NCBI RefSeq assembly: GCF_029227855.1
Contig: NZ_CP074356.1
From: Escherichia coli
GTDB lineage: Bacteria > Pseudomonadota > Gammaproteobacteria > Enterobacterales > Enterobacteriaceae
Length of the DNA stretch: 64,000 bases
Reading direction: 5' to 3' (one strand)
Of the stretch, positions 2,327 through 20,540 are shown in pieces. Position 1 is the stretch's first letter. Every line of letters begins with the position of its first letter. The position numbers were made by a program, and so were the translations under genes. The notes beneath the pieces were generated by a model, which made no database searches, was not told where the DNA came from, and worked only from the letters and a program-made list of their open reading frames with translations.

Positions 2327-2941
<615 letters not shown>

Positions 2942-2954
2942 CCGGACACGATCT

Positions 2955-2984
2955 TGATGTGGACTGTAGATATTCAGTCCACAT
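2955..2984. terminator. 11-bp perfect inverted repeat between convergent azoR and ynbD (likely bidirectional terminator)
   Basis: gatgtggactg-tagatatt-cagtccacatc seen directly between the two stop codons. Confidence 0.5.
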
Positions 2985-2994
2985 CTCAATCCGC

Positions 2995-6049
<3,055 letters not shown>

Positions 6050-6064
6050 TTTCTCTATTTTCCT

Positions 6065-6961
6065 TCAGTAACAGCAGTAGCGAATAAAATAAAAAAATAC
6101 CGGAGCGGTGAAAATTAATGAGTCAATCCTGTCAAGGAGTCCGCCATGTCCTGGTAATAGTTTTCCACTATCTTTAACACCAATATCTCGTTTGATGGCT
6201 GACATCACTACATCGCCGCAAAAACCACTAATACCAATTAACAAACCCGCTAATAATGCCTGTAATGTATCTAGCGGTGTCAGCAACGGTCCAATAATCA
6301 GTGACGCAATCATGGTGGTGATTACGCCGCCCATCAGACCTTCCAATGTTTTTCCCGGGCTGACTTTAGGGACCACTTTTCTTCTGCCGCAGGATTTTCC
6401 CCATAAATACTGTGCAATATCGTTTGACTCGGTTAATGCCAAAAGAAATAACACCAGTAACGCCCCGCCCTGGATATTTGTGGTTGGCAACATTAATAAC
6501 CAGGCGGCATGACTCAAGGCGAAAACGGTCATTATCCAGCCACAAAAAATGGCGCTCACGGTATGCAGAAAACCGGAGGGGTCACCCACTAAAACTCGCC
6601 AGGTGGCTAATATCAGAAACCCAGCCAAAGGTATAAATAACAGAAACAGCTCAAAGCAATTAAAACCGATAAGCAAATAGTTAAGAGGAATACCCCAATA
6701 TAACCAACGCGGAAAATGTACAGATATAAGCGTACAATATTCTTTCAATGCCAGAAAACTTATCAGCGCAAAAAACGTCAACGTCATCCAGCGTGGACCT
6801 GAAATCACCATTGAAAAACAAATGACGATGCCCCACCAAGTACGAATACGTAATGTAACTTCATCCCCTTTTCTCTCCGGTAACCGCCATACCAGAAAAC
6901 GGTTTATCAGCGTTGCTAAAATTAACAACGCGAAAAGTGTTGCCAGAGATTTTTCCAGCAT
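6065..6961 (-). CDS. ynbB: CDP-diglyceride synthetase (CdsA)-family integral membrane protein
   Basis: 298-aa polytopic membrane ORF; start ATG overlaps ynbA stop (ATGA). Confidence 0.85.
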   Translation of the reverse strand: MLEKSLATLFALLILATLINRFLVWRLPERKGDEVTLRIRTWWGIVICFSMVISGPRWMTLTFFALISFLALKEYCTLISVHFPRWLYWGIPLNYLLIGFNCFELFLLFIPLAGFLILATWRVLVGDPSGFLHTVSAIFCGWIMTVFALSHAAWLLMLPTTNIQGGALLVLFLLALTESNDIAQYLWGKSCGRRKVVPKVSPGKTLEGLMGGVITTMIASLIIGPLLTPLDTLQALLAGLLIGISGFCGDVVMSAIKRDIGVKDSGKLLPGHGGLLDRIDSLIFTAPVFFYFIRYCCY

Positions 6962-7572
6962 TATCTTTCAGCGCTCATAAGAAGCACACTCCGACAACGA
7001 TTAATCGCAGTCCAGAGAAGCAGAATTGAAGCAATGCTCCATAAAAGATTATTCCATTGCATCCATTGTGGATAAATGGCAATGGCCAGACCCCACAGAC
7101 CAAATATTAACGCGCGATCGCTTTTGCCAAATGGACCGACATAACTACGAATACCGTTAATCGTCTGCGCGAGTAAACCGCAAAACTCGGTCAATATGGT
7201 GCAAAATAACATGATTATCACGAGTGATGCGTTACTTTCCGGTAAAAATAAAAACGGTAAATAGAGCGCAATATCGGAAATAACATCGCCAGTCTCATTC
7301 AAAATCGCCCCAAGACGTGTTTGCTGATTGCACTCACGCGCCAACATGCCATCCAGCGCATTGAGTGCCATACGAATAAAAAGCACAATGGGCAATAGCA
7401 AAAAGAGGATGGGTTGTGCCACCAACATCAACAGCAATCCGCTAAGAAGAGAAAGTGCCAGTGCAGCAAGAGTGATGTGATTCGCTGTAACATGGTGCTT
7501 ATTAAGCCAAAACATCGTCGGCCTTAACAGCGACTGAAAGAGCGGTTTTATCTGGTAGAGCGTCATTATCAA
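6961..7572 (-). CDS. ynbA: CDP-alcohol phosphatidyltransferase-family membrane protein
   Basis: 203-aa hydrophobic ORF, first gene of the ynbABCD operon. Confidence 0.85.
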   Translation of the reverse strand: MIMTLYQIKPLFQSLLRPTMFWLNKHHVTANHITLAALALSLLSGLLLMLVAQPILFLLLPIVLFIRMALNALDGMLARECNQQTRLGAILNETGDVISDIALYLPFLFLPESNASLVIIMLFCTILTEFCGLLAQTINGIRSYVGPFGKSDRALIFGLWGLAIAIYPQWMQWNNLLWSIASILLLWTAINRCRSVLLMSAER

Positions 7573-7734
7573 TCCTTGATAATTCTGTTTGCGCTATGGT
7601 GCATCAATTGCCCTGACAGAGATATCGCAACACGCCGCTTCAATAAAAATTCAGAATATATCAAGGTATTGGGGCTCACTGTCAGGAATGATTATCCACA
7701 ATTAATCAAATAGTTAAAAATATTACGCTGTTAT

Positions 7735-10047
7735 TCAATGCAACTCATCAAGTTTTCTCATCGCTTGTTCCCGTATTGCGCGCGTCTTATCGTTAAGCGC
7801 CAGCTGCCGAACTAAATCCAGTTCAGGGTTAACAAGCTCTAACGCCAGCAAAGGATCACGTTTCAGCCTCGCCTTTAATACATCAACTGGAAAACGGGGA
7901 TTATTCATCGCCACAATCCACCACTCGGGATCAATTTCTGCCGCCAGTACTGCAGGCGGTGTGTGGCGGTTGTTAAGTGCGCCGAACTTGAAAAATGTGA
8001 GATTGCTTTTCGCCAGTGTACTCCACCATATACGATCCGGTTGTTTTGCCAGTTTATCCAGTTGTGCTAACGCATCGGGGTCTAGTGCATAATAAACACG
8101 TAACGCTTCGTTAACCTGCGCACGGGAACTGTTTTCCTGCCTCAGAAAAAACTTCGCCCAAATATCATTGCGTGGCGTGTTTTGCTGTAATTCCTTGAGA
8201 ACAACAGCGGGTAAATTATCCCAACTAATTAATGCACTCTCTAAAAAGTCCCAGTCGTCCGAACGTATCAGAGAGGTGGCATTTAATAGCATCTGGTCAT
8301 CAACTTCACCGTAGCTGATAAGCTCAGACAAAATCATATCAGCGCTGGTTTCATATGCATCTGAATCTGCTTTGGGATTATTTTTCCGATGCGATAAAGC
8401 ACGTTGCCAAATTTTTTGTTTCATCGACGTGCTCAGATACTGATTTTTCGCCAAATTACTCCACCCCTCAGGATCGTTGAAACGTGTCAATAACCGTTGT
8501 AAAGCAGCGTCAGAGTGAATTACCTGCATATCCCGACAGCAAAAGTAGGCAGGGGATTTTTTCTCCATCTTTTTAACAAAATTAAACTGTAAGTTATCTG
8601 GCAATGCTAAAAATAACACACGTATTAGATCATCGTCATTCTCGAATTTTTGGTATAAATATACTGCTATTTTGTCACTCTCTTGTGGCGTCATCCGCAA
8701 CAATTGACCATGGTGTTTCATCTCTGCCAGCTTTGACGCTAAGCTTGTGACAACATCGTTTGATGAATCGTTCGCCAACTGCATTGCCTGATTGTAGGTG
8801 AGTTGTCCTCCAGCACCGACCTGACGAATAGAGAAATCATCACTGCGGATATAGCCATCAATAATGGATTCGGGCAATAACCACGCATCTTTATAAAGCT
8901 CCTGAATGATCATATCCCAATCTCTTTTCGCCAGAGTCATGACGATATCCAGAGGGAGATTTTCACGTAGCGCAAGATTCAACGGACCGACACCATCAGG
9001 TAGATGACTCATTCGCGTCATTATTTCGACAGAGAGCGGTTCACGGTCGAGCAACCCCAGAACAACAGGCTGGTAACCCAATTGCTGATCGGTCAACTCC
9101 AGAATCTCATTGTCAGGCATATATCTCGCCATACTTGCAATCGTTTGTCCATCATTGCTATTAATAAGTTGTTTGCGTAGGTTAGCTGAAATTCCTTTAA
9201 GCCTTGGGAGAGTTCGCATTATGGCAAGATCAAATGTCGCAATGTCTCGTCCTTCAAATGCAGCAACGTTGCCTTCATCCAGCATTTGTAATTCCTGCAC
9301 TAATTCAGGTGAAGGCTTAGGGCGAAACAGCGCTTCTTTTTTCATCTGATTACAGACATTCCCTGCTATGCGAATATTGCTTCGCTTAAAAATTTCTTTC
9401 AGAGCATCTTCATCATTTATTAGGCCCCAATAATATGCATCAGGATTTATTATCGTCAGCGCTTTTTTGACATTTTCAGTGTCATTTTTGTCACTCGCAC
9501 GGACCATGAATTCACTATTTGTCGAAGACGCAACAACAGGTGCGATTATATCATTGATAAATATCCCGCGCGCATTAATACTCCCCTTAATCGTAGACGG
9601 ATTATCGTAATATGAGTCGATAAATACCAGTCCACTTGCATTTATCGAACCGGTAATTAACAGTGGTGAATCCGTAACTATATTCGTTGCCGTCACGTTA
9701 CCGAGAATAACCCATGGATTAGAAAGAGAGAAAGTGGAAATATTACCTTTGACTGTCAAATTGCCAAGAACAATCAATTTTTGATTACTCTCTATATTAC
9801 CTTCTACCACTAAATCGCCACGATGCACTTTCCAGTCCGATGCAGATAAACCGAAGGGGACAAGATTCACGCTACTGTTGATAGCTTGTTCAACTTGTTG
9901 TTTATCTTCAGCGGTAGCCGCAGAAAAAAATGGTTCAATATCAACTGCATTTGCAACACATCGAAGTTCCGCCTGTACTGGAAGACTCAGCATAAACAGG
10001 GGAAGTAAACCTATCCAGCTGCAAATCCTGGGCTTAAACATATGCAC
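7735..10047 (-). CDS. ydbD: Uncharacterised protein YdbD with N-terminal signal peptide
   Basis: 770-aa ORF with signal-peptide-like N-terminus (MHMFKPRICSWIGLLPLFMLSLPVQA); position next to ydbC. Confidence 0.85.
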   Translation of the reverse strand: MHMFKPRICSWIGLLPLFMLSLPVQAELRCVANAVDIEPFFSAATAEDKQQVEQAINSSVNLVPFGLSASDWKVHRGDLVVEGNIESNQKLIVLGNLTVKGNISTFSLSNPWVILGNVTATNIVTDSPLLITGSINASGLVFIDSYYDNPSTIKGSINARGIFINDIIAPVVASSTNSEFMVRASDKNDTENVKKALTIINPDAYYWGLINDEDALKEIFKRSNIRIAGNVCNQMKKEALFRPKPSPELVQELQMLDEGNVAAFEGRDIATFDLAIMRTLPRLKGISANLRKQLINSNDGQTIASMARYMPDNEILELTDQQLGYQPVVLGLLDREPLSVEIMTRMSHLPDGVGPLNLALRENLPLDIVMTLAKRDWDMIIQELYKDAWLLPESIIDGYIRSDDFSIRQVGAGGQLTYNQAMQLANDSSNDVVTSLASKLAEMKHHGQLLRMTPQESDKIAVYLYQKFENDDDLIRVLFLALPDNLQFNFVKKMEKKSPAYFCCRDMQVIHSDAALQRLLTRFNDPEGWSNLAKNQYLSTSMKQKIWQRALSHRKNNPKADSDAYETSADMILSELISYGEVDDQMLLNATSLIRSDDWDFLESALISWDNLPAVVLKELQQNTPRNDIWAKFFLRQENSSRAQVNEALRVYYALDPDALAQLDKLAKQPDRIWWSTLAKSNLTFFKFGALNNRHTPPAVLAAEIDPEWWIVAMNNPRFPVDVLKARLKRDPLLALELVNPELDLVRQLALNDKTRAIREQAMRKLDELH

Positions 10048-10104: not shown

Positions 10105-10965
10105 TTATTCTCGCGATATACCATCCAACGTAGACAACACTTCCTCAGAAAGATGCAATTTTTCAGCAGCCATATTCTCCCGTAAATGCGCAACAGAAGA
10201 CGTCCCTGGGATCAGCAAAATATTCGGTGAACGTTGTAACAGCCACGCCAGCGCCACCTGCATGGGTGTTGCACCCAGGCTCGCAGCAACATCCGACAGC
10301 GTAGAGGATTGCAGCGGTGTAAAGCCCCCGAGCGGGAAGAACGGCACGTAAGCAATGCCATCGTGGGCCAAAGCATCAATCATTGCATCATCAGCACGGT
10401 GCGCGATGTTGTATTCGTTTTGCACACAGACAATTTCGGCAATCTTGCGCGCCTCTGCAACCTGCGTCGGTGTGACGTTGCTCAGGCCAATATGTTTTAC
10501 CAGGCCTTGTTGTTGCATCTCTGCCAGCACGGTCAGGCTGGCCTCAATCGATCCTTCCGCTGGGCCATGACCATCCCCCATCATAACGCGCAGGTTAACC
10601 ACATCCAGTACGTCCAGGCCGAGATTACGTAGATTATCGTGCACCGCTTTTTGCAACTCTGCCGGAGAACAGGCGGGCAACCAGGAAGCGTCCTCTCCAC
10701 GCCGCGCACCAATTTTAGTGACAATTGTCAGGTCGTCAGAGTAAGGATAAAGCGCTTCGCGGATAATCTGATTGGTGACGTGCGGACCATAAAAGTCGCT
10801 GGTATCAATGTGATTGACGCCCAATGCCAGCGCCTCGCGCAGTACAGTTATAGCGACGTGGCGATCTCTTGGGGGGCCAAAAACCCCAGGACCTGCCAGT
10901 TGCATCGCGCCATAACCAAGACGGTTAACGGATTTTGTACCGAGAGTAAATGTATTGCTGCTCAT
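10105..10965 (-). CDS. ydbC: Aldo-keto reductase family oxidoreductase
   Basis: 286-aa ORF, AKR fold (GYGAMQLAG... HIDTSDFYG). Confidence 0.88.
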   Translation of the reverse strand: MSSNTFTLGTKSVNRLGYGAMQLAGPGVFGPPRDRHVAITVLREALALGVNHIDTSDFYGPHVTNQIIREALYPYSDDLTIVTKIGARRGEDASWLPACSPAELQKAVHDNLRNLGLDVLDVVNLRVMMGDGHGPAEGSIEASLTVLAEMQQQGLVKHIGLSNVTPTQVAEARKIAEIVCVQNEYNIAHRADDAMIDALAHDGIAYVPFFPLGGFTPLQSSTLSDVAASLGATPMQVALAWLLQRSPNILLIPGTSSVAHLRENMAAEKLHLSEEVLSTLDGISRE

Positions 10966-11131
10966 CGCACCCTGCCCTGTAATAAAACGGATTGAGAAAA
11001 ATCAGTATAGAAACGAAAAGAGATAAATAATGCGAAGGCGTAAACAAGATTACTGGATGAGTTGCTCTATTGTCCTGAAAGACACCAAAACAAAACGCGT
11101 AAAGCGCCGCATTCGGCAATAAAATAAATAT

Positions 11132-11155
11132 CCTCCGGCATAGCCGGAGGTTTTT
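11132..11155. terminator. GC-rich hairpin plus T-run between ydbC upstream region and the IS element
   Basis: cctccggc-ata-gccggagg followed by ttttt on the plus strand. Confidence 0.45.
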
Positions 11156-11159
11156 CAAA

Positions 11160-11880
11160 TGCGCCTATAAGGCTCTCTTACCAGCCGCGCCCTAACAGGC
11201 GCACACGATCTGACATTTGCATCCAACTTCGTTACTTACGGCCCGTAAACGGGCTGCCCGGATAGGGAATCGATAACTGCTCTCCCATTTTATCCTCTTC
11301 AAGCTGGTGCTTTATGTAATCCTGTATCTTCGCCGTGTTCTTACCCACCGTATCGACGTAGTACCCTCTGCACCAGAACTCCCTGTTCCTGTATTTGAAT
11401 TTCAAATCACCAAACTGCTCGTAAAGCATCAGACTGCTTTTCCCTTTCAGATATCCCATAAAGCCGGATACGCTCATTTTGGGCGGGATCTCCACAAGCA
11501 TATGGATATGATCTGCACAGCATTCAGCTTCCAGAATCCGTACACTTTTCCACTCACACAGCTTTCTCAAAATACTGCCTATTGCTCTACGCTTCTCTCT
11601 GTAGAACACCTGTCTTCGGTATTTTGGCGCAAAAACTATGTGATATTTACAGTTCCATCGGGTGTGCGCTAAGCTCTTTTCGTTCCCCATTGGGACCCCC
11701 TTTTGATTTCTTGTTTGACACTTGCAGTTGCCAGACCGCAAGGTGTTTTAACAAATCAAAAGGGGTTTTAATAACTGGCTTAAAGCTGAAAGCTTTCCGG
11801 AACCCCCAGCCTAGCTGGGGGTTTTCTGTGCACAAAAAACCGCAACCTGTATCAGCGTTGCGGTTTAGGTATCACATGCT
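11160..11880 (-). mobile_element. IS200-like insertion sequence (IS200/IS605 family); boundaries approximate
   Basis: Single Y1/HuH transposase gene flanked by short non-coding arms with stem-loops (cccccagc-ctag-gctggggg at 11805-11823; aaccgcaac...gttgcggtt at 11840-11866); about 0.7 kb, as expected for IS200; ends not mapped. Confidence 0.7.
11232..11690 (-). CDS. tnpA: IS200/IS605-family transposase TnpA (Y1 HuH)
   Basis: MGNEKSLAHTRWNCKYHIVFAPKYRR...HIHMLVEIPP (HuH motif)...; ATG at 11688-11690 preceded by aaaggggg RBS; the 169-aa track ORF has a spurious N-terminal extension. Confidence 0.9.
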   Translation of the reverse strand: MGNEKSLAHTRWNCKYHIVFAPKYRRQVFYREKRRAIGSILRKLCEWKSVRILEAECCADHIHMLVEIPPKMSVSGFMGYLKGKSSLMLYEQFGDLKFKYRNREFWCRGYYVDTVGKNTAKIQDYIKHQLEEDKMGEQLSIPYPGSPFTGRK

Positions 11881-11886
11881 AAAAAT

Positions 11887-11912
11887 TAGAACGTCCAGCA
11901 TCAGGACGTTAC
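11887..11912 (-). terminator. Hairpin plus T-run at the paaY stop codon
   Basis: minus strand reads TAA-cgtcctgatgctggacgtt-ctaattttt. Confidence 0.45.
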
Positions 11913-12499
11913 TGTTTCGGTCGCAGATTCTCATCAAATACCAAGCGTTTCCTGCCAGGTTCAACTTCCCGCAATGGCTCAACTTGATGTAACGTCTGCT
12001 TACAGCGTGTCACCAGCACCTGGTACTCATGCGTACCCTGCTTTTTCCATGCCAACTCCTGCTCACTGAGTTCACGAATCGCTTTCGCCGGGCTGCCGAC
12101 AATCAGGTAATTAGCAGGCATTTCTGCTTTGGCTTTCACAAATGCGGATGCACCCACAATACTGTTCTCACCAATCACCGCACCGTCCATCACTACCGCA
12201 TTCATTCCCACTAATGCATTGCGGCGGATAATGCAGCCGTGAAGGATAGCGCTATGACCAATATGCCCATCTTCTTCCACGACAGTATCCTGCTCGGGAA
12301 AACCGTGCATAACGCAATTATCCTGAATGTTCGCGCCATCTTTCACCACGATACGACCAAAATCGCCACGCAGGCTGGCATTTGGCCCAACGTACACGCC
12401 CTTGCCGAGAATAACATCGCCGATCAATACCGCTGTCGGATGGACAAAACTCTCTTCTGGCACAACCGGAGTCAGACCGTCTATCTGATAAATTGGCAT
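11909..12499 (-). CDS. paaY: Hexapeptide-repeat thioesterase/acetyltransferase of the phenylacetate pathway
   Basis: 196-aa left-handed beta-helix (hexapeptide) protein, last gene of the paa cluster. Confidence 0.9.
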
Positions 12500-13431
12500 A
12501 ACGCCTCCTGTTCAATATTCAAGCCGCCAAAACGTTGAAAATACAGGCTTCCCGGCGCAGGCAATTCACCGACCGAGGTTTCACCTTTTTCACTAACGAA
12601 CGCTAAAGCAGCAGGCGCTACGCGCTGATAAATGTTGATACACAGCTGACGCGCCGTATGCCCTGCCCAGTGTGCCGGAAGCAACTCCTCCGGCAACAAT
12701 GGGTCTTTAAGGACGACACGGCGATAAAAATGGATCAGTAAAAGCTGAATATGAAATGCCCGCTCCGGGGTTAACTCGTCTGCCGTCTCTTTTAACAGCG
12801 GCACCAGCGGGCGGAATGACTGAATAAAGGTTTCGTACATGGCATTTTGTTCAGTTAAATGCCAGCACTCTTCTACTCTGGCACGCAGTGCTGCGCGAGA
12901 AAGCGCCAGTGGTATTTGCGCTTCAAAACAAATCACGTTATCCGCCACACCCGCTTCATGCAAAAGTGTCTGTACATCGGCCAGTTTTTGCGACGGCGAT
13001 GCCATCAGGCTGGGTGCCAGTGCGCCAAAACCTTGCCAGATCAACTGCTTTTTGACATCAGCCAGCGTCGTTTTATCTAAACCTTCCGAGAGCAACAGGA
13101 GCCATTTACCATCCCATGCAGGTTGCTCTGCGCGATAAATTTTACTTTCTGCCCGTCGCGTCAGGCGCAAGCCTTTATCACTGAGGCTATAGAAACTGCG
13201 TCGCCCGATGCGGGAAACATCCAGCCAGCCTTCTTTATTAAGACGAAACAAAGCGGTGCGCACGAAACGCTCACCAAATCCCAGCCCTTCCAGCAAAGCA
13301 GCCAGACTACCCAGCCAGATTTCACCACCACGATGGGAAAGCGAATCACCATACAGAGAGGAGATCAAAGATGTGCCACTGACAGGAACAGCGTTTACAG
13401 CATGTTGGATAAAAGTATCAAGTTTACTCAT
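12481..13431 (-). CDS. paaX: Phenylacetyl-CoA-responsive transcriptional repressor PaaX
   Basis: 316-aa ORF, position and recognised sequence. Confidence 0.9.
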
Positions 13432-13531
13432 TCGATTCAGTCTGTTGTTATTGTTGTGATTTATGAATCATAGCACAGGTCGTATCGACTTCTGGCCCTG
13501 GCGGTTTACCTCACCAGGGCCAGGCGACACG

Positions 13532-14845
13532 TCAGGCACCAACAATATTGCGCAGATCAAACACCCGACACGCCTTGCCTTCTGAACGCGGGATACTGCC
13601 ACAGTTAACGATCATCACATCGGTAGAGATCCCCACCATCGACTTAATCCGATGGCGCAGCTGGTGGCACACCTGGCAACGCTGCTCATGCGTCAATGTC
13701 AGGCTACTTTCTTTCAACTCCACTTTCACAGAAAGTGAATCAAGATGCCCCCGGCGGTTCACCTCCAGTTGGTAATGCGGCGATAAATGTTCGAATTTGA
13801 CAATCTCTTCTTCCAGTTGCGACGGAAAGACATTTACACCGCGAATAATCAACATGTCATCGCTGCGTCCGCTGATGCGATCCATGCGGCGCATAGTCCG
13901 CGCCGTTCCTGGTAACAGTCGGGTTAAATCACGCGTGCGGTAACGAATGACCGGCAATGCTTCTTTGGTCAGCGTGGTGAATAACAGTTCTCCATGTTCA
14001 CCATCGGCAAGCGGTGTGCCGTCATGAGGATTAACAATTTCAGGATAGAAATGATCTTCCCAAATGGTTGGGCCGTCGGTAGTTTCCAGACACTCCATCG
14101 CCACCCCCGGCCCCATCACTTCTGACAGGCCATAAATATCCAGTGCGGTGATCCCCAGGCGACGCTCAATTTCTTTACGCATGGCCTGTGTCCACGGCTC
14201 AGCACCAAACACTCCAACCCGCAGCGAGCAACCGCTGGCATCACCGCCCAACTGCCGCTCCAGCTCTTCAATCAGGTTAAGGCAATAAGATGGCGTAACC
14301 ATGATCATATCTGGTTGAAAATCGCGGATCAGTTGCGCTTGTTTTTCCGTCTGCCCACCAGACATCGGGATCACCGTAGCGCCCAGACGTTCGGCACCAT
14401 AGTGCGCACCCAGCCCACCAGTAAACAGGCCGTAACCATAGGCAACATGAATTTTATCTTTGGGCGTGCCACCTGCCGCACGCAAGGAACGCGCTACTAT
14501 ATTGGCCCAGTTATCAATATCGTTTTGCGTATAGCCAACAACTGTCGGTTTACCTGTTGTTCCCGAAGAAGCATGAATGCGCACCACTTGTTCCATCGGC
14601 ACGGCAAAGGTGTCGAAAGGATAGTTGTCGCGCAGATCCTGTTTGGTGGTACAGGGAAATTTACGCAGGTCAGAAAGTTCCCTGAAATCATCAGGATGTA
14701 CGCCTGCTGCGTCGAATTTGCGCCGATACATCGGGACATTTTCATACGCGTGTTTGAGCGTCCATTTCAGACGCTGTGTTTGCAACGCCTGTAACTCATC
14801 TACAGACGCGGTTTCAATCGGGTCAAGCTTTGTATTGGTTATCAT
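13532..14845 (-). CDS. paaK: Phenylacetate-CoA ligase
   Basis: Adenylate-forming enzyme (SSGTTGKPT motif); start trimmed to MITNTKLDP (437 aa) from the 465-aa track ORF. Confidence 0.9.
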   Translation of the reverse strand: MITNTKLDPIETASVDELQALQTQRLKWTLKHAYENVPMYRRKFDAAGVHPDDFRELSDLRKFPCTTKQDLRDNYPFDTFAVPMEQVVRIHASSGTTGKPTVVGYTQNDIDNWANIVARSLRAAGGTPKDKIHVAYGYGLFTGGLGAHYGAERLGATVIPMSGGQTEKQAQLIRDFQPDMIMVTPSYCLNLIEELERQLGGDASGCSLRVGVFGAEPWTQAMRKEIERRLGITALDIYGLSEVMGPGVAMECLETTDGPTIWEDHFYPEIVNPHDGTPLADGEHGELLFTTLTKEALPVIRYRTRDLTRLLPGTARTMRRMDRISGRSDDMLIIRGVNVFPSQLEEEIVKFEHLSPHYQLEVNRRGHLDSLSVKVELKESSLTLTHEQRCQVCHQLRHRIKSMVGISTDVMIVNCGSIPRSEGKACRVFDLRNIVGA

Positions 14846-14871
14846 TGTAGGGTACTCGCAGGTTGATATGC

Positions 14872-16077
14872 TCAAACACGCTCCAGGATCATGGCGATGC
14901 CCTGACCGACACCGATGCACATGGTGCACAATGCGTAACGACCGTTACGCCGATGCAGCTCATGGCTGGCAGCCAGTGCCAGGCGGGCACCACTCATTCC
15001 CAACGGATGGCCTAAGGCGATAGCGCCTCCGTTGGGGTTAACATGTGGGGCATCATCAGGTAGCCCCAATTCGCGTAGTACACCCAACGCCTGGGCCGCG
15101 AACGCTTCGTTCAGTTCAATCACGTCCATATCGTGAATACTCAACCCCGCGCGTTCCAGCACCCGACGAGTTGCAGGCACCGGACCAAGCCCCATCAGGC
15201 GCGGTTCCACCCCGGCGGTTGCCATGGCTACGATACGCGCTCGCGGTGTCAGTCCTTGCGCTGCTGCCATCTGTTCACTGGCAATAATCAACGCAGCGGC
15301 TCCATCATTCACCCCGGAGGCATTGCCTGCGGTGATCACTCCATTGGCACGAAATGGTGCTTTTAGTCCACGTAACTGTTCCAGCGTCGTTTCCGGGCGC
15401 AGATGCTCGTCATGTTGTATTTCTGTTACAACACCTTTTTTGTTTTTCAACACAACCGGAACAATCTCTTCAGCTAAAATGCCTGAAGATTGCGCTTTTG
15501 CTGTACGTTGCTGACTGCGTAGCGCAAAACTATCTTGATCTTCTCGCGAGATTTTTAACAGTTCAGCTACATTCTCTGCCGTTTCCGGCATGCTGTCAGT
15601 TCCAAATTGTTGAGCCATGAGCGGGTTCACAAATCGCCAGCCAATAGTGGTATCAAACATCTCAGCCTGACGAGAAAATGCACTGGTTGCCTTGCCCATA
15701 ACAAACGGTGCCCGAGACATTGACTCCACGCCACCAGCGATCAGCAAATCGCCATCGCCCGCTTTAATCGCCCGTGCGGCGAACCCCAGTGCGTCCAGTC
15801 CGGAACCACACAAGCGGTTAATGGTTGTGCCGGAAACACTCTGCGGCAGCCCCGCCAGTAAAGTCGCCATCCGGGCTACGTTACGGTTATCTTCTCCCGC
15901 CTGATTAGCACAGCCGAGGATCACATCATCGATACATTCCGCATCGAGACGCGGGTTTCGCACCAGCAGTTCCCGCAAAGGGATAGCAGCCAGATCATCA
16001 GCCCGAACACCTGATAATGCCCCGCCGTAGCGACCAATTGGCGTACGAATTCCGTCACAGATAAAGGCTTCACGCAT
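14872..16077 (-). CDS. paaJ: 3-oxoadipyl-CoA / 3-oxo-5,6-dehydrosuberyl-CoA thiolase
   Basis: 401-aa thiolase (active-site Cys region NRLCGSGL; C-terminal CIGVGQG). Confidence 0.9.
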
Positions 16078-16499
16078 CAGGCTTCTCCTGTAATGGTGCC
16101 GCCGATGCGGTGAGATTTACCGCGAAACAGCGCAACCGTTTTTTGTTGTTGGTTAACAATTTCGATGTCGTAAACACCGGTTTGCTTGCCCTGATGACGT
16201 ACCTGCGCAGTAGCAGTTAAGGTGTCTCCGGCAAAGCCTGGACGCAAAAAATCAATCGTGCAGGCAGAAGCGACGGCTGCCAGCCCCTGGCTATTGCAGG
16301 CGTAGGCAAAGGCAGTATCAGCCAGTGAAAATAGCTGCCCGCCGTGGCAACTTTGATGACCATTAAGCATTTGTGCAGTGACGGTCATGGTCACTACAGC
16401 AAAGCCTTCATCCATTGAGATAATGTCGATGCCAAGCGCTTTGGCGCAGGCATCGTTCTCATACATTGCATGGGCATTTTGCCAGGCCTTATTACTCAT
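16077..16499 (-). CDS. paaI: Hotdog-fold acyl-CoA thioesterase PaaI
   Basis: 140 aa from MSNKAWQNAHAMYEND...; the track ORF carries an N-terminal extension. Confidence 0.88.
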   Translation of the reverse strand: MSNKAWQNAHAMYENDACAKALGIDIISMDEGFAVVTMTVTAQMLNGHQSCHGGQLFSLADTAFAYACNSQGLAAVASACTIDFLRPGFAGDTLTATAQVRHQGKQTGVYDIEIVNQQQKTVALFRGKSHRIGGTITGEA

Positions 16500-17916
16500 A
16501 ACCGCTCTCCAGAAGCGCTCGTTGGCGCAGCAATGAACATGGGCGATAGCGTTCTTCGCCATAGTGATGTTGTAGATTTTCCAGGAGCCTTAATATTCGC
16601 TGCCAGCCAAGTTGCGCTCCCCAGGCAAGCGGGCCATATGGATAATTCACCCCAAGACGCATGGCGGTATCGATATCCTGTTCAGAGGCCACGCCTTTTT
16701 GAAGCGCATCAAGGGCTTCATTGATGATCATTGCTACCGTTCGCCAAATCAGCATTCCTGGGTAATCTGCAATTTGCAGCACTGTTTTGCCCTGCTGTTG
16801 CAGGTAATAAATGGCCTTGCGGGTCGCTGAGTCCGGGTTCACCGCTGCCGCAGCAATGGTCACCACCTTGCCCGCCATTTTGTCGACCACTACCACCGGG
16901 CGTGCCAGTCGTATTGCCAGCGCCTGTGCCGTCTCGCCTTGTGTCTCAATCAATAAAACATCGTCAATTTCCGTGACACCGTCACTTTTCTTTTCTACTT
17001 TCATGGGGCTAAAACTGTCGCTTACCGCTTCCAGGCCAACAACTGCCTCACGTTCCGCGCGCCAGTCGTACACGCCCAGCCCACTTTTCTTGCCCAACCG
17101 TCCACCAATCACCAGTTCCTGTTGCACCAGCGAAGGTAAAAAACGACGCTCCTGCCAGAAAGCGTTAAACACCGAACAGGTGACAGCAAAATTGACGTCC
17201 TGACCAATCAGATCGGTTAATTCCAGCGGCCCCATCGGGAAACCAGCGCCATCGCGAAGTGCAGCGTCAATCACTTCTGGTGCAGCAACCTGCTCTTCCA
17301 GTGCCCGCCAGGCCTCGGAATAATAAGGACGCGCAACACGGTTAACGATAAATCCAGGAGTCGAATGACAGCGCACAGGCTGCTTACCCCAACTCAACGT
17401 TAGTTCACACAACTGCTCAACAACTTCCGCTGCCGTTGCCAGCCCACTGACCACCTCCACCAACTTCATCACCGGTGCCGGGTTAAAAAAATGCAGCCCC
17501 GCAACACGTTCAGGATTTTTTACCTCCGCAGCAATCGCGGTTATAGAGATTGACGAAGTGTTAGTGGTCAATAGCGTTTGTGGCGGGCAAACTTCCGCCA
17601 GCTGTGCAAAGAGCGCTTTTTTGACTTCCAGACGTTCAGACGCCGCTTCAATGACCAGGTCCGCAGCTGCCAGCGCGTGAATATCGGTCACCGGGATCAG
17701 GCGTTTCAATGTGCGTTCACAGGTTTCAGCAGTCAGTTTTCCCCGCGTCACTCGTGAATTTAGCCGCGCGTGTATCCCGTCGATTGCGCGGGTCAGCGCT
17801 TCAGCAGAAATGTCATACAGTAAAACCTGATGTCCATGACTGGCGGCAACTTCAGCAATGCCAGCCCCCATGGTGCCGCTCCCAATCACTGCCACAGTTT
17901 GCACATTTATCATCAT
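16492..17916 (-). CDS. paaH: 3-hydroxyadipyl-CoA dehydrogenase
   Basis: NAD-binding GxGxxG (VAVIGSGTMGAGIA); start trimmed to MMINVQ. Confidence 0.88.
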   Translation of the reverse strand: MMINVQTVAVIGSGTMGAGIAEVAASHGHQVLLYDISAEALTRAIDGIHARLNSRVTRGKLTAETCERTLKRLIPVTDIHALAAADLVIEAASERLEVKKALFAQLAEVCPPQTLLTTNTSSISITAIAAEVKNPERVAGLHFFNPAPVMKLVEVVSGLATAAEVVEQLCELTLSWGKQPVRCHSTPGFIVNRVARPYYSEAWRALEEQVAAPEVIDAALRDGAGFPMGPLELTDLIGQDVNFAVTCSVFNAFWQERRFLPSLVQQELVIGGRLGKKSGLGVYDWRAEREAVVGLEAVSDSFSPMKVEKKSDGVTEIDDVLLIETQGETAQALAIRLARPVVVVDKMAGKVVTIAAAAVNPDSATRKAIYYLQQQGKTVLQIADYPGMLIWRTVAMIINEALDALQKGVASEQDIDTAMRLGVNYPYGPLAWGAQLGWQRILRLLENLQHHYGEERYRPCSLLRQRALLESGYE

Positions 17917-17917
17917 G

Positions 17918-18706
17918 CTATTTCCCCGTGAACTGCGGTGAGCGTTTAGCCAGGAACGCACTGACACCTTCACGATAATCTGCGCTCCGTCCGGCAAGTC
18001 GCTGATAGTCACGTTCCAGATCCAGTTGCGTATCAAGCGTATTGGTTTCAGCGCTATTTATCGCTTGCTTGATAAGTCCAAGACCAAATGTCGGTTGTGT
18101 CGCCAGATGCCGTGCCAGCTGTTGCGCGGTATCTGCCAGCGTTTCATCATCAACAACCTGCCAGATCATCCCCCATTCGTGCGCCTGTTCAGCACTCAGT
18201 TGATTCCCCAGCAGTGCCAGCCCCATGGCGCGCGCTCGTCCGGCAACGCGTGGCAGTAACCAGGTACCACCGCAATCGGGTACCAAACCTAACTTACTAA
18301 ACGCCATGACGAATTTTGCTGAACGGGCAGCAATAACGATATCGCACCCCAGTGCCAGTGTTGCGCCTGCCCCTGCAGCCACGCCATTAACTGCACAGAT
18401 CACCGGTTTTGGCAGTTTTGCCAGGCGACGTACCAGTGGGTTATAGAAACGCTCCACTGACATACCTAAATCCGGTGCGGGGCCTGTGGGATCAACGTTA
18501 CGATCGTTAAGATCCTGACCAGCACAAAATCCACGTCCGGCACCTGTAATTAACAAGCAACGGATAGTGTCGTCGCGCTCGACCTGTTTCAGGCACTCTG
18601 CCAGTTGTGCGTGCATCTCATCATTAAAACTGTTCAGGCGTTCCGGGCGGTTGAGCGTTAGTGTCATCACGCCCTTTTCTACATGACTGAGGATGAATTC
18701 CATCAT
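17918..18706 (-). CDS. paaG: 1,2-epoxyphenylacetyl-CoA isomerase (crotonase fold)
   Basis: 262-aa enoyl-CoA hydratase/isomerase-family ORF. Confidence 0.9.
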   Translation of the reverse strand: MMEFILSHVEKGVMTLTLNRPERLNSFNDEMHAQLAECLKQVERDDTIRCLLITGAGRGFCAGQDLNDRNVDPTGPAPDLGMSVERFYNPLVRRLAKLPKPVICAVNGVAAGAGATLALGCDIVIAARSAKFVMAFSKLGLVPDCGGTWLLPRVAGRARAMGLALLGNQLSAEQAHEWGMIWQVVDDETLADTAQQLARHLATQPTFGLGLIKQAINSAETNTLDTQLDLERDYQRLAGRSADYREGVSAFLAKRSPQFTGK

Positions 18707-19473
18707 TAGCGTCCTTTAAAGTCGGGCGTGCGTTTTTGTAAGAAAGCGGAGATGCCTTCATGACGATCTTCTGTTGCCGCCAGCAAGGTGAATAACTGTC
18801 GCTCCTGGGCAAGTCCGGCTTGCAAAGCCACTTCCTGCGACTGGCGCAGCGCTTGCTTTGCCGCTTGTAAGGCCAGCGGCGAGTGACGTGCCATTTTCGA
18901 CGCCAGCTGTAAGGCGTATTCGAGGGTTAAATCGCTGGGGAAGACGTCGCTAACCAGCCCGGCCTGCTGTGCTTGCTGAGCGGTGATACTTTCTCCGCTC
19001 AGCACCATTTTGCTGGCTAACGATTTACCGACACTACGGATTAAACGTTGCGTTCCGCCTGCGCCAGGCATGATGCCGAGAGTGATTTCCGGCAACCCAA
19101 AACGCGCGTTCTCTCCGGCAACCACCACATCGCACAACAATGCCAGTTCGCAACCCGCACCAAGCGCGTAACCGTTGACGGCTGCGATGAGTGGTTTGTT
19201 AAAGGCCTGCAATCGCGCCCATAGCTGCGGACGTGTATCGTTTAAGGTGGCCGCGAGATCTTTTTCTGCCATTTCGTTGAGATCGGCCCCAGCGGCAAAA
19301 AAGCGTGCATTACCGGTAATCACACAGACCGAAATGCTGGGATCGATAGCCGCAGCTTCCAGCTCATTTACCAGTTGCGTCAGCAGGACATTATTCAGCG
19401 CATTACGTGCGGCAGGACGGTTAAGGGTCAGCAACAATACTCGTTGCTGACGGCTGACGATCAGTTCGCTCAT
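18706..19473 (-). CDS. paaF: 2,3-dehydroadipyl-CoA hydratase (crotonase fold)
   Basis: 255-aa enoyl-CoA hydratase-family ORF. Confidence 0.9.
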   Translation of the reverse strand: MSELIVSRQQRVLLLTLNRPAARNALNNVLLTQLVNELEAAAIDPSISVCVITGNARFFAAGADLNEMAEKDLAATLNDTRPQLWARLQAFNKPLIAAVNGYALGAGCELALLCDVVVAGENARFGLPEITLGIMPGAGGTQRLIRSVGKSLASKMVLSGESITAQQAQQAGLVSDVFPSDLTLEYALQLASKMARHSPLALQAAKQALRQSQEVALQAGLAQERQLFTLLAATEDRHEGISAFLQKRTPDFKGR

Positions 19474-20540
19474 GCCATCCCCTTCGCGTCAAAGTCAACC
19501 ACCACATCGCTGGTCAGCGGCAGTGCCTGGCAACTCAACACATAGCCTGCAGCCAGTTCATCCGGTTCCAGACTGTAATTGGTTTCCATCGCCACTTTGC
19601 CACGCAGCACTTTGCATTTGCAGGTCGCACAGACGCCGCCTTTGCAGGCATAGGGCAGATCAGCCCCCTGGCGCAATGCCGCATCGAGAATGCTTTCATC
19701 GTCGGCATTAAGCACGATTTCCCGATCCCGCCCATCCTGACGCACAGTCACTTTTTGTCCGTCACTTTGCACGTTAACGTTACGTTTGACGCGCGTGCCA
19801 GCCGTATTAAACCGCTCCAGATGAATCGCTTTTTCTGGCATTCCCAGTGCTTTTAAGGCAGCTTCCGCGTCATCCATCATCGCCGCCGGACCACAAATAA
19901 ACGCCTCATCATAAAGACGAAAATTAATGAGCGAGGCCCCAAGTGACTGTAATTTTTCACCGTCAATACGCCCGTGAAGCAGATCGCTGTCGAGAGTTTC
20001 CTGACTGAAAATGCACAACAACTGTAAACGCTGAGGATATTTGTCTTTCAGGTCTGCCAGTGCCTGGCGAAACATCATGCTCTGGCTGGTACGGTTACCG
20101 TAAATCAGAGTGAACTGACTTTCAGGCTCGGTTTGTAAAGTGGTGGCGATAATCGCCAGCATTGGCGTAATACCCGATCCTGCTGCAATAGCCAGATAGC
20201 GGCCCTGGCGTTCGGCCTGTGGCTGATAGCCGAAATGCCCCTGCGGCACCATGACTTCCAGCGTCATCCCCTGGCGGATGTGTTCGCGGGCATAGCGGGA
20301 GAAACGTCCGCCTTCAATGGCTTTCACCGCCACACTAATTTCGCCAGGCAGGTAGCTACGGCAAATGGAGTAACAACGGCGTAATTCTTCACCATTAAGG
20401 CTGGCTTTTAAGGTCAAATGTTGACCGGGACGAAAGCGATACGCCTCCTGCAAAGGCTGGGGTACCGCAAAGGTAATGGTTACCGCATCACGGGTTTCTG
20501 GCTCCACTTTTGCCACCGTTAAGGAATGAAACGTTGTCAT
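19470..20540 (-). CDS. paaE: Phenylacetyl-CoA epoxidase reductase subunit (FAD/NAD + 2Fe-2S ferredoxin)
   Basis: C-terminal plant-type ferredoxin cysteines (CKGGVCATCKC); start trimmed to MTTFHSLTVAKV (356 aa). Confidence 0.88.
   Translation of the reverse strand: MTTFHSLTVAKVEPETRDAVTITFAVPQPLQEAYRFRPGQHLTLKASLNGEELRRCYSICRSYLPGEISVAVKAIEGGRFSRYAREHIRQGMTLEVMVPQGHFGYQPQAERQGRYLAIAAGSGITPMLAIIATTLQTEPESQFTLIYGNRTSQSMMFRQALADLKDKYPQRLQLLCIFSQETLDSDLLHGRIDGEKLQSLGASLINFRLYDEAFICGPAAMMDDAEAALKALGMPEKAIHLERFNTAGTRVKRNVNVQSDGQKVTVRQDGRDREIVLNADDESILDAALRQGADLPYACKGGVCATCKCKVLRGKVAMETNYSLEPDELAAGYVLSCQALPLTSDVVVDFDAKGMA

Follow-up and report, generated by a model that had tools for sequence, protein, structure and literature searches.

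Was the ydbA gene lost from between paaY and pdxI in some Escherichia coli, or was it never there? We analyzed a 64-kb stretch of E. coli DNA (the window), which matches the chromosome of the Japanese clinical isolate E. coli JNEC-KY178 (NZ_AP045174.1) at 100% identity. The window runs in the reverse orientation to the K-12 map. According to the original prediction, ynbG and ydbA should lie between paaY and ydbC (now pdxI) on the K-12 map, with ydbA interrupted by IS2 and IS30; the same interval in the window was described as ~0.94 kb of an IS200-like element plus short spacers. Two histories were offered: either ydbA was never acquired in this lineage, or it has been deleted.

Both descriptions are accurate. 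In MG1655, the annotation places 9159 bp between the stop codon of paaY and the start codon of pdxI, and this interval holds ynbG and ydbA, the latter broken up by insertions of IS2D and IS30C. In the window, the open reading frames and the RefSeq annotation of the identical record put 943 bp (10966-11908) between the start codon of pdxI and the stop codon of paaY. These comprise a 157-bp spacer, a 711-bp IS200, and a 75-bp spacer (11834-11908). The genes ydbD (7735-10047), pdxI, the tnpA of IS200, paaY, paaX, and paaK are all on the minus strand. The features are listed in the table.

Features of the paaY-pdxI interval in the window, and spans of ydbA in loci extracted from other genomes (in the coordinates of each extracted locus)
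Feature	Position	Strand	Details and evidence
pdxI (current name of ydbC)	10105-10965	-	Aldo/keto reductase, pyridoxine 4-dehydrogenase; ORF, RefSeq, Pfam Aldo_ket_red (E=4e-50)
Native pdxI upstream spacer	10966-11122	-	157 bp; BLAST and MAFFT against K-12, E597, O157, and ydbA-less genomes
IS200 (IS200C type)	11123-11833	- (as paaY and pdxI)	711 bp; ends GTGCACAG...GGAGGATATTTATT
IS200 right-end hairpin	11132-11150	-	CCTCCGGC-TAT-GCCGGAGG; terminator-like scan; conserved in all IS200 copies aligned
tnpA	11232-11690	-	Y1 (HUH) transposase, 152 aa; Pfam Y1_Tnp (E=3.8e-38); RefSeq WP_000526135.1 "IS200C family transposase"
IS200 5' UTR, STnc490	11700-11823	-	Rfam RF01405, full length; score 146.1 bits (gathering cutoff 56); E=1.5e-31
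IS200 left-end hairpin	11803-11821	-	CCCCCAGC-TAG-GCTGGGGG; read from the sequence
Terminator T-tract	11834-11839	-	Abutted by the left end of IS200
Intrinsic-terminator-like hairpin	11840-11863	-	CCGCAAC-N10-GTTGCGG; conserved in ydbA+ and ydbA- genomes
ydbA remnant	11886-11903	-	18 nt, TGATGCTGGAC + GTTCTAA; alignments
Deletion joint	11904-11908	-	C (first base after the paaY stop, shared with K-12) plus 4 orphan nt, GTCC
paaY	11909-12499	-	Final gene of the paa cluster; ORF, RefSeq, Pfam Hexapep
ydbA in L001	4393-13014
ydbA in L008	2534-8614
ydbA in L007	13081-18648
ydbA in L098 (ST131)	12017-20533

The question would not arise if K-12 did not carry ydbA at this junction, and the MG1655 map shows that it does. 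The MG1655 locus (NC_000913.3 1464471-1475081) shares with the window the order paaK, paaX, paaY ... pdxI, ydbD, ynbA, along with the ydbA terminator and the pdxI upstream region (96.7% identity); window positions 10966-11122 are colinear with the K-12 stretch that runs from the ydbA terminator to pdxI. What the window is missing corresponds to NC_000913.3 1465063-1473984 (8922 bp including IS2D and IS30C), which means that it lacks ynbG, IS2D, IS30C, and all of ydbA except for 18 nucleotides. Conversely, the IS200 in the T-tract of the terminator is present in the window and absent from K-12. At the other end of the paa island, the window and K-12 have an identical ydbL-feaR boundary, so both arrangements go back to a single paa insertion, and the ydbA end is the only place where they differ.

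Nothing else of ydbA remains in the window. A tblastn search of the window with the intact YdbA of strain E597 gave no match, no autotransporter ORF with a C-terminal β-barrel lies between paaY (or ydbL) and pdxI, and the window retains no ydbA coding capacity. A search for ydbA-like sequence elsewhere in the genome had also been proposed. For this we used a chimeric query: a 2.2-kb paaXK segment that is unique to the lineage was fused to the 3'-terminal 1.76 kb of E597 ydbA, placed on the opposite strand. In a blastn search (word size 11), the paaXK part ranks JNEC-KY178 at the top, and the query matches NZ_AP045174.1 in a single place, which is the paaXK part, so we found no ydbA-barrel DNA elsewhere on this chromosome. 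Also, the 3' third of K-12 ydbA has megablast matches in 2542 genomes, and essentially once per genome. We found no point in favor of the idea that ydbA moved elsewhere in the genome, and given the empty window, the single place on the chromosome matched by the chimeric query, and the single-copy behavior of the 3' DNA, we consider it highly improbable.

The 18 nucleotides that remain are the key evidence about the history of the junction. They correspond to the final 29 nt of ydbA minus an internal gap of 11 nt (TTCAAGAAAAC), which lies between AAC repeats. Reading toward paaY, positions 11834-11894 match the K-12 ydbA terminator and its T-tract, the short spacer that precedes the terminator, and the final 9 nt of ydbA (ACGTTCTAA). 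Positions 11893-11903 (TGATGCTGGAC) overlap this stretch by 2 nt and are identical to ydbA at 10 of 11 positions. Within the 8.95-kb K-12 interval, this 11-mer matches only once (with 1 mismatch), at a point exactly 29 nt from the ydbA terminus; a match of this kind inside the final 60 nt of ydbA would arise by chance with a probability of ~5e-4, and the inferred ancestral form of the 11-mer has 0 mismatches to ydbA. We did not find the origin of the GTCC filler at the deletion joint in the sequence that follows paaY in K-12, ST131, or Pseudocitrobacter.

The remnant is unusually polymorphic relative to its flanks (4/23 nt). In the form seen in the window, the remnant and the paaY stop can form a perfect 7-bp hairpin, AACGTCC-N7-GGACGTT (11890-11910, minus strand); the B1-type allele, with its four differing positions, cannot.

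The same junction is common across E. coli. We joined the flanks from the window, with the IS200 removed, and searched 5426 complete E. coli genomes with this query; 2034 of them (~37%) cover it without a break. We aligned 11 genomes without ydbA, which span B1 STEC, APEC-type strains, O166:H15, and the window's own lineage, and which include three named STEC or O166:H15 strains and two avian or pig isolates with a truncated paa cluster. All 11 have the same joint and the same remnant, with only 4 SNPs among them. At each of the four polymorphic sites, one of the alleles is the same as in ydbA, and the inferred ancestor agrees with ydbA at 18/18 positions. Joint and remnant are as in the window in NRZ14408, isolate 362, STEC 2014C-3050, O111:H8 1074-2, and O166:H15 JNE070796, whose spacers differ from the window in having no IS200. 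NRZ14408 and isolate 362 match the flanks in the window over their entire 231-bp spacer, while B1-type short junctions differ from it at the four positions in the remnant.

The repetitive passenger domains of ydbA might have caused an assembler to collapse the gene and to produce a short interval. We see next to no chance of this, as the junction is base-for-base alike in many independent complete assemblies.

Among the genomes that we sampled from outside the 2034, the gene beside pdxI nearly always encodes an autotransporter of the BigA/YdbA type. These include some that are mislabelled as "EntS/YbdA" and two that are labelled "hypothetical protein." (The label "EntS/YbdA MFS transporter" appears beside pdxI in several RefSeq genomes, such as UTI89 (NC_007946.1) and ST131; this is apparently a mix-up of the names ydbA and ybdA.) Earlier work had identified the paa/ydbA region, which is bounded by ydbH-ynbE-ydbL and ynbC-ynbD-azoR, as heterogeneous among genomes, and had reported that about 42% of phylogroup A genomes have a full-length ydbA (PMC4951805). 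Polymorphism between paaY and pdxI was already known and is common, and the exact scar is the added detail that decides for deletion. The idea that ydbA was lost "in this lineage" is correct as to its absence, but the loss is not peculiar to the lineage, as the same junction is found in 2034/5426 genomes.

Which state is ancestral? Alignments against K-12 and other phylogroups, which the original prediction had proposed, show the order paaY-ydbA-pdxI in both K-12 (phylogroup A) and ST131 (B2). ST131 has a fragment of paaY, a spacer that is homologous to the ynbG spacer of K-12, an intact 8.5-kb ydbA, and then pdxI. In Pseudocitrobacter faecalis, paaX and paaY are followed by an autotransporter of the BigA/YdbA type (1982 amino acids) and then by pdxI. 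In the divergent "E. coli" SCPM-O-B-8794, whose PdxI is 92% identical, ydbA adjoins pdxI. Because a remnant of ydbA is retained, and because the order paaY-ydbA-pdxI is found in K-12, ST131, and Pseudocitrobacter faecalis, the short junction is probably the derived state, with the order of events read from sequence comparisons.

If ydbA had instead never been acquired, then the short paaY-pdxI junction would be ancestral and ydbA would have been inserted later, in K-12-like lineages. The highly mosaic ydbA, with a 5' part that depends on the lineage, would fit a gene that is exchanged horizontally, and E. albertii has no ydbA at pdxI: in strain NBRC 107761, ydbL lies directly before pdxI, with neither paa nor ydbA. 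But the short junction ends with 18 nt of ydbA coding sequence and its stop codon among them, followed by the terminator, and the end of an insertion would need to recreate all of these exactly. Since the order paaY-ydbA-pdxI also occurs in two phylogroups (A and B2) and outside the genus, we think it very unlikely that ydbA was never acquired. Of the two histories that were offered, deletion is the one that agrees with the retained 3' end and terminator of ydbA, the gene order elsewhere, and the shared ydbL-feaR boundary. The paaY-pdxI interval is, we are quite confident, the scar of an old deletion of ydbA that was later hit by IS200.

The arrangement in E. albertii does show that further configurations exist, which bears on the deepest ancestral state of the genus. 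(We considered whether its ydbL-pdxI spacer holds a remnant of ydbA, but its similarity to the 3' end of ydbA, ~67% over 36 nt, is too weak.) Also, simple parsimony may mislead at this locus, because the 5' part of ydbA and the upstream spacer are not homologous among strains, and the locus has been remodelled several times. Only the 3' third of ydbA (the barrel and the adjacent part of the passenger) can be aligned among K-12, E597, and O157; the 5' two-thirds are unrelated, and the length of the gene ranges from 6.1 to 8.5 kb. We asked if a module boundary might coincide with the left breakpoint, but K-12, E597, and O157 have unrelated spacers upstream of ydbA as well. Where autotransporter adhesins of the BigA/YdbA family (NCBIfam NF033178) occupy the site, E597 (2026 aa), ST131 (2838 aa), and Pseudocitrobacter faecalis each have an intact gene, whereas the window keeps just 18 nt. 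In the O157:H7 strain E32511, ydbA is annotated as two ORFs.

The other conspicuous feature of the interval is the insertion element. IS200, of the IS200/IS605 family, was first described in Salmonella. Like other IS200 elements, the copy in the window is ~0.7 kb, has a single gene for a Y1 transposase (PF01797, aligned over profile positions 2-121 of 121), has ends (GTGCACAG and GGAGGATATTTATT) that are not inverted repeats, has sub-terminal hairpins on both sides, and has a 5' UTR of the STnc490 type. BLAST limits were blurred by runs of A or T, so we fixed the ends of the element by comparing another IS200C copy, from strain 20Ec-P-124, to its empty site. That comparison was exact, with no target duplication. 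The absence of target-site duplication is also exact at this locus in KE55, which has six Ts before the element and one T after it, versus seven Ts in the empty site. The window has six and two, that is, one extra T in the homopolymer. For transposition by the single-strand "peel and paste" mechanism of the group, the only signs are indirect: ~24 places on this chromosome match the element, and other strains have several seemingly independent insertions at this site.

Could IS200 have caused the loss of ydbA, by an IS-mediated deletion of adjacent DNA or by recombination between IS copies? The element does lie within the interval, and recombination between two IS200 copies apparently deleted pdxI in three strains from pigs (see below). 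However, the deletion joint is 70 bp from the end of the IS, and ~2000 genomes have the identical joint with no IS200. Furthermore, NRZ14408 and isolate 362, which are the closest relatives (with identical paaXK and an identical 231-bp spacer), have the scar along with an empty site of 7 T. IS200 thus arrived later than the deletion and is unrelated to it; these empty-site genomes already refute the idea that IS200 caused the loss, and we regard it as extremely unlikely. The short junction is thus an old and widespread deletion allele that is neither specific to one strain nor caused by IS200.

Putting these events in order, the ancestor would have had paaY, a spacer of ~330 bp of the ynbG type, ydbA, the ydbA terminator, and pdxI. 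A single deletion would have run from the first base after the stop codon of paaY to 29 nt before the stop of ydbA. At some point, an 11-nt gap between the AAC repeats would have trimmed the remnant to 18 nt. The ydbA terminator would have outlasted the deletion and ended up behind paaY. By spread or by inheritance, the deletion allele would then have reached the ~37% of sequenced E. coli that carry it. IS200 would have come much later and to only a few strains, JNEC-KY178 among them. It would have entered the T-tract that directly follows the terminator hairpin, leaving the pdxI upstream region intact behind it, presumably by the cut-and-paste mechanism typical of its family, which makes no target duplication.

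All of the genomes that we aligned, with or without ydbA, retain the G+C-rich terminator hairpin followed by a T-tract of 6-7 T, and the only variation among them is a substitution or two in, or next to, the 5' arm. The terminator scan did not list CCGCAAC-N10-GTTGCGG, as its 10-nt loop is above the limit of the scan. This hairpin is probably the terminator of ydbA in K-12, and with its present location downstream of paaY, it would be expected to terminate transcription of paaY. In the window, paaY would be trailed by the small hairpin from the remnant and then by the old ydbA terminator. As for pdxI, its promoter presumably lies in the 157-bp upstream spacer. A promoter scan of positions 10900-12000 found no sigma-70 consensus, so this placement is presumptive. 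A strong effect of IS200 on the expression of pdxI seems unlikely, because IS200 brings a left-end hairpin of its own and lies upstream of the 157-bp region, which is conserved across genomes. An Rfam match to Ysr202 at 11050-11155 (27.8 bits, against a gathering score of 315) was dismissed as a chance match or a match to a hairpin only.

Of 5426 genomes searched with a junction-specific query, 7 have IS200 in the T-tract that follows the old ydbA terminator. Four of these (JNEC-KY178, KE55, GMF065, and 200164) have an identical joint between the terminator and the IS. In the three strains from pigs (including HCP5S3_I2 and ETEC1738), the IS200 sits 3 nt further along. The carriers hold two alleles of IS200 that differ at 29 positions (~4%), and they represent two chromosomal backgrounds, with either a full or a truncated paa cluster. 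The flanks in JNEC-KY178 and KE55 are identical, and yet the copy in the window is 4% divergent from the allele that lies at the same nucleotide in KE55 and GMF065; otherwise, the copy in the window is not notable. This pattern suggests that the site is a mild hot spot for insertion. Gene conversion is an alternative explanation for the difference between alleles: the JNEC-KY178 chromosome has ~24 places that match IS200, of which the paaY-pdxI locus is one. We give even chances to the claim that IS200 has landed repeatedly in the T-tract behind the old ydbA terminator. A recent survey reported an excess of terminator-like sequences immediately upstream of IS200/IS605 elements (bioRxiv 10.1101/2025.07.22.666184), which agrees with the hot-spot pattern.

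The three pig isolates lack pdxI and have the order paaY-IS200-ydbD (positions 2472-3286 of the extracted locus from HCP5S3_I2; also ETEC1738). The left flank of their IS200 is the paaY terminator and the right flank is the ydbD-pdxI spacer. They appear to have lost pdxI by recombination between two direct copies of IS200 that flanked it, and the second copy would appear to have resembled the one between ydbD and pdxI in 20Ec-P-124.

We also considered 66 genomes with at least 80% coverage as potential carriers of IS200 in the paaY-pdxI spacer, but most of them have IS200 between ydbD and pdxI instead. About 60 genomes, many of them APEC or avian, have IS200C at that location. In the one that we inspected, 20Ec-P-124 (positions 1440-2290 of the extracted locus), the annotation gives ydbD as frameshifted, and all that is left of the paa cluster is paaY and a fragment of paaX, adjoining ydbL.

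The other side of pdxI is variable too. In ST131 and SCPM-O-B-8794, pdxI is followed directly by azoR-hrpA, and the ydbD-ynbABCD block (window ~2995-10047) is absent, which is another indel. Within that block, ynbD (window ~2995-4302) is a frameshifted pseudogene in the annotation of JNEC-KY178. Among the matches listed for PdxI, which did not include the GTDB representative of E. coli or E. fergusonii, the closest homologs outside a few Enterobacteriaceae are 72-79% identical at the amino acid level and are from Mesorhizobium, Rhizobium, Burkholderia, Corallococcus, and similar genera. The distribution of pdxI among these matches looks patchy and might be the result of horizontal transfer.

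The locus itself is ordinary, and deciding for deletion settles a question of bookkeeping: the ydbA pseudogene of K-12 marks a hypervariable autotransporter locus, and the 18-nt scar is a handy marker for typing its configurations. Recurrent insertions of IS200 at one T-tract would be a small natural data point on how IS200 chooses its targets. If these are independent insertions, and not the result of gene conversion or lateral spread, then this locus would be a natural case of IS200 targeting the DNA of a terminator's hairpin and T-tract, and, if this is true, IS-driven erosion of a neighboring gene would accompany the targeting of terminators by IS200.
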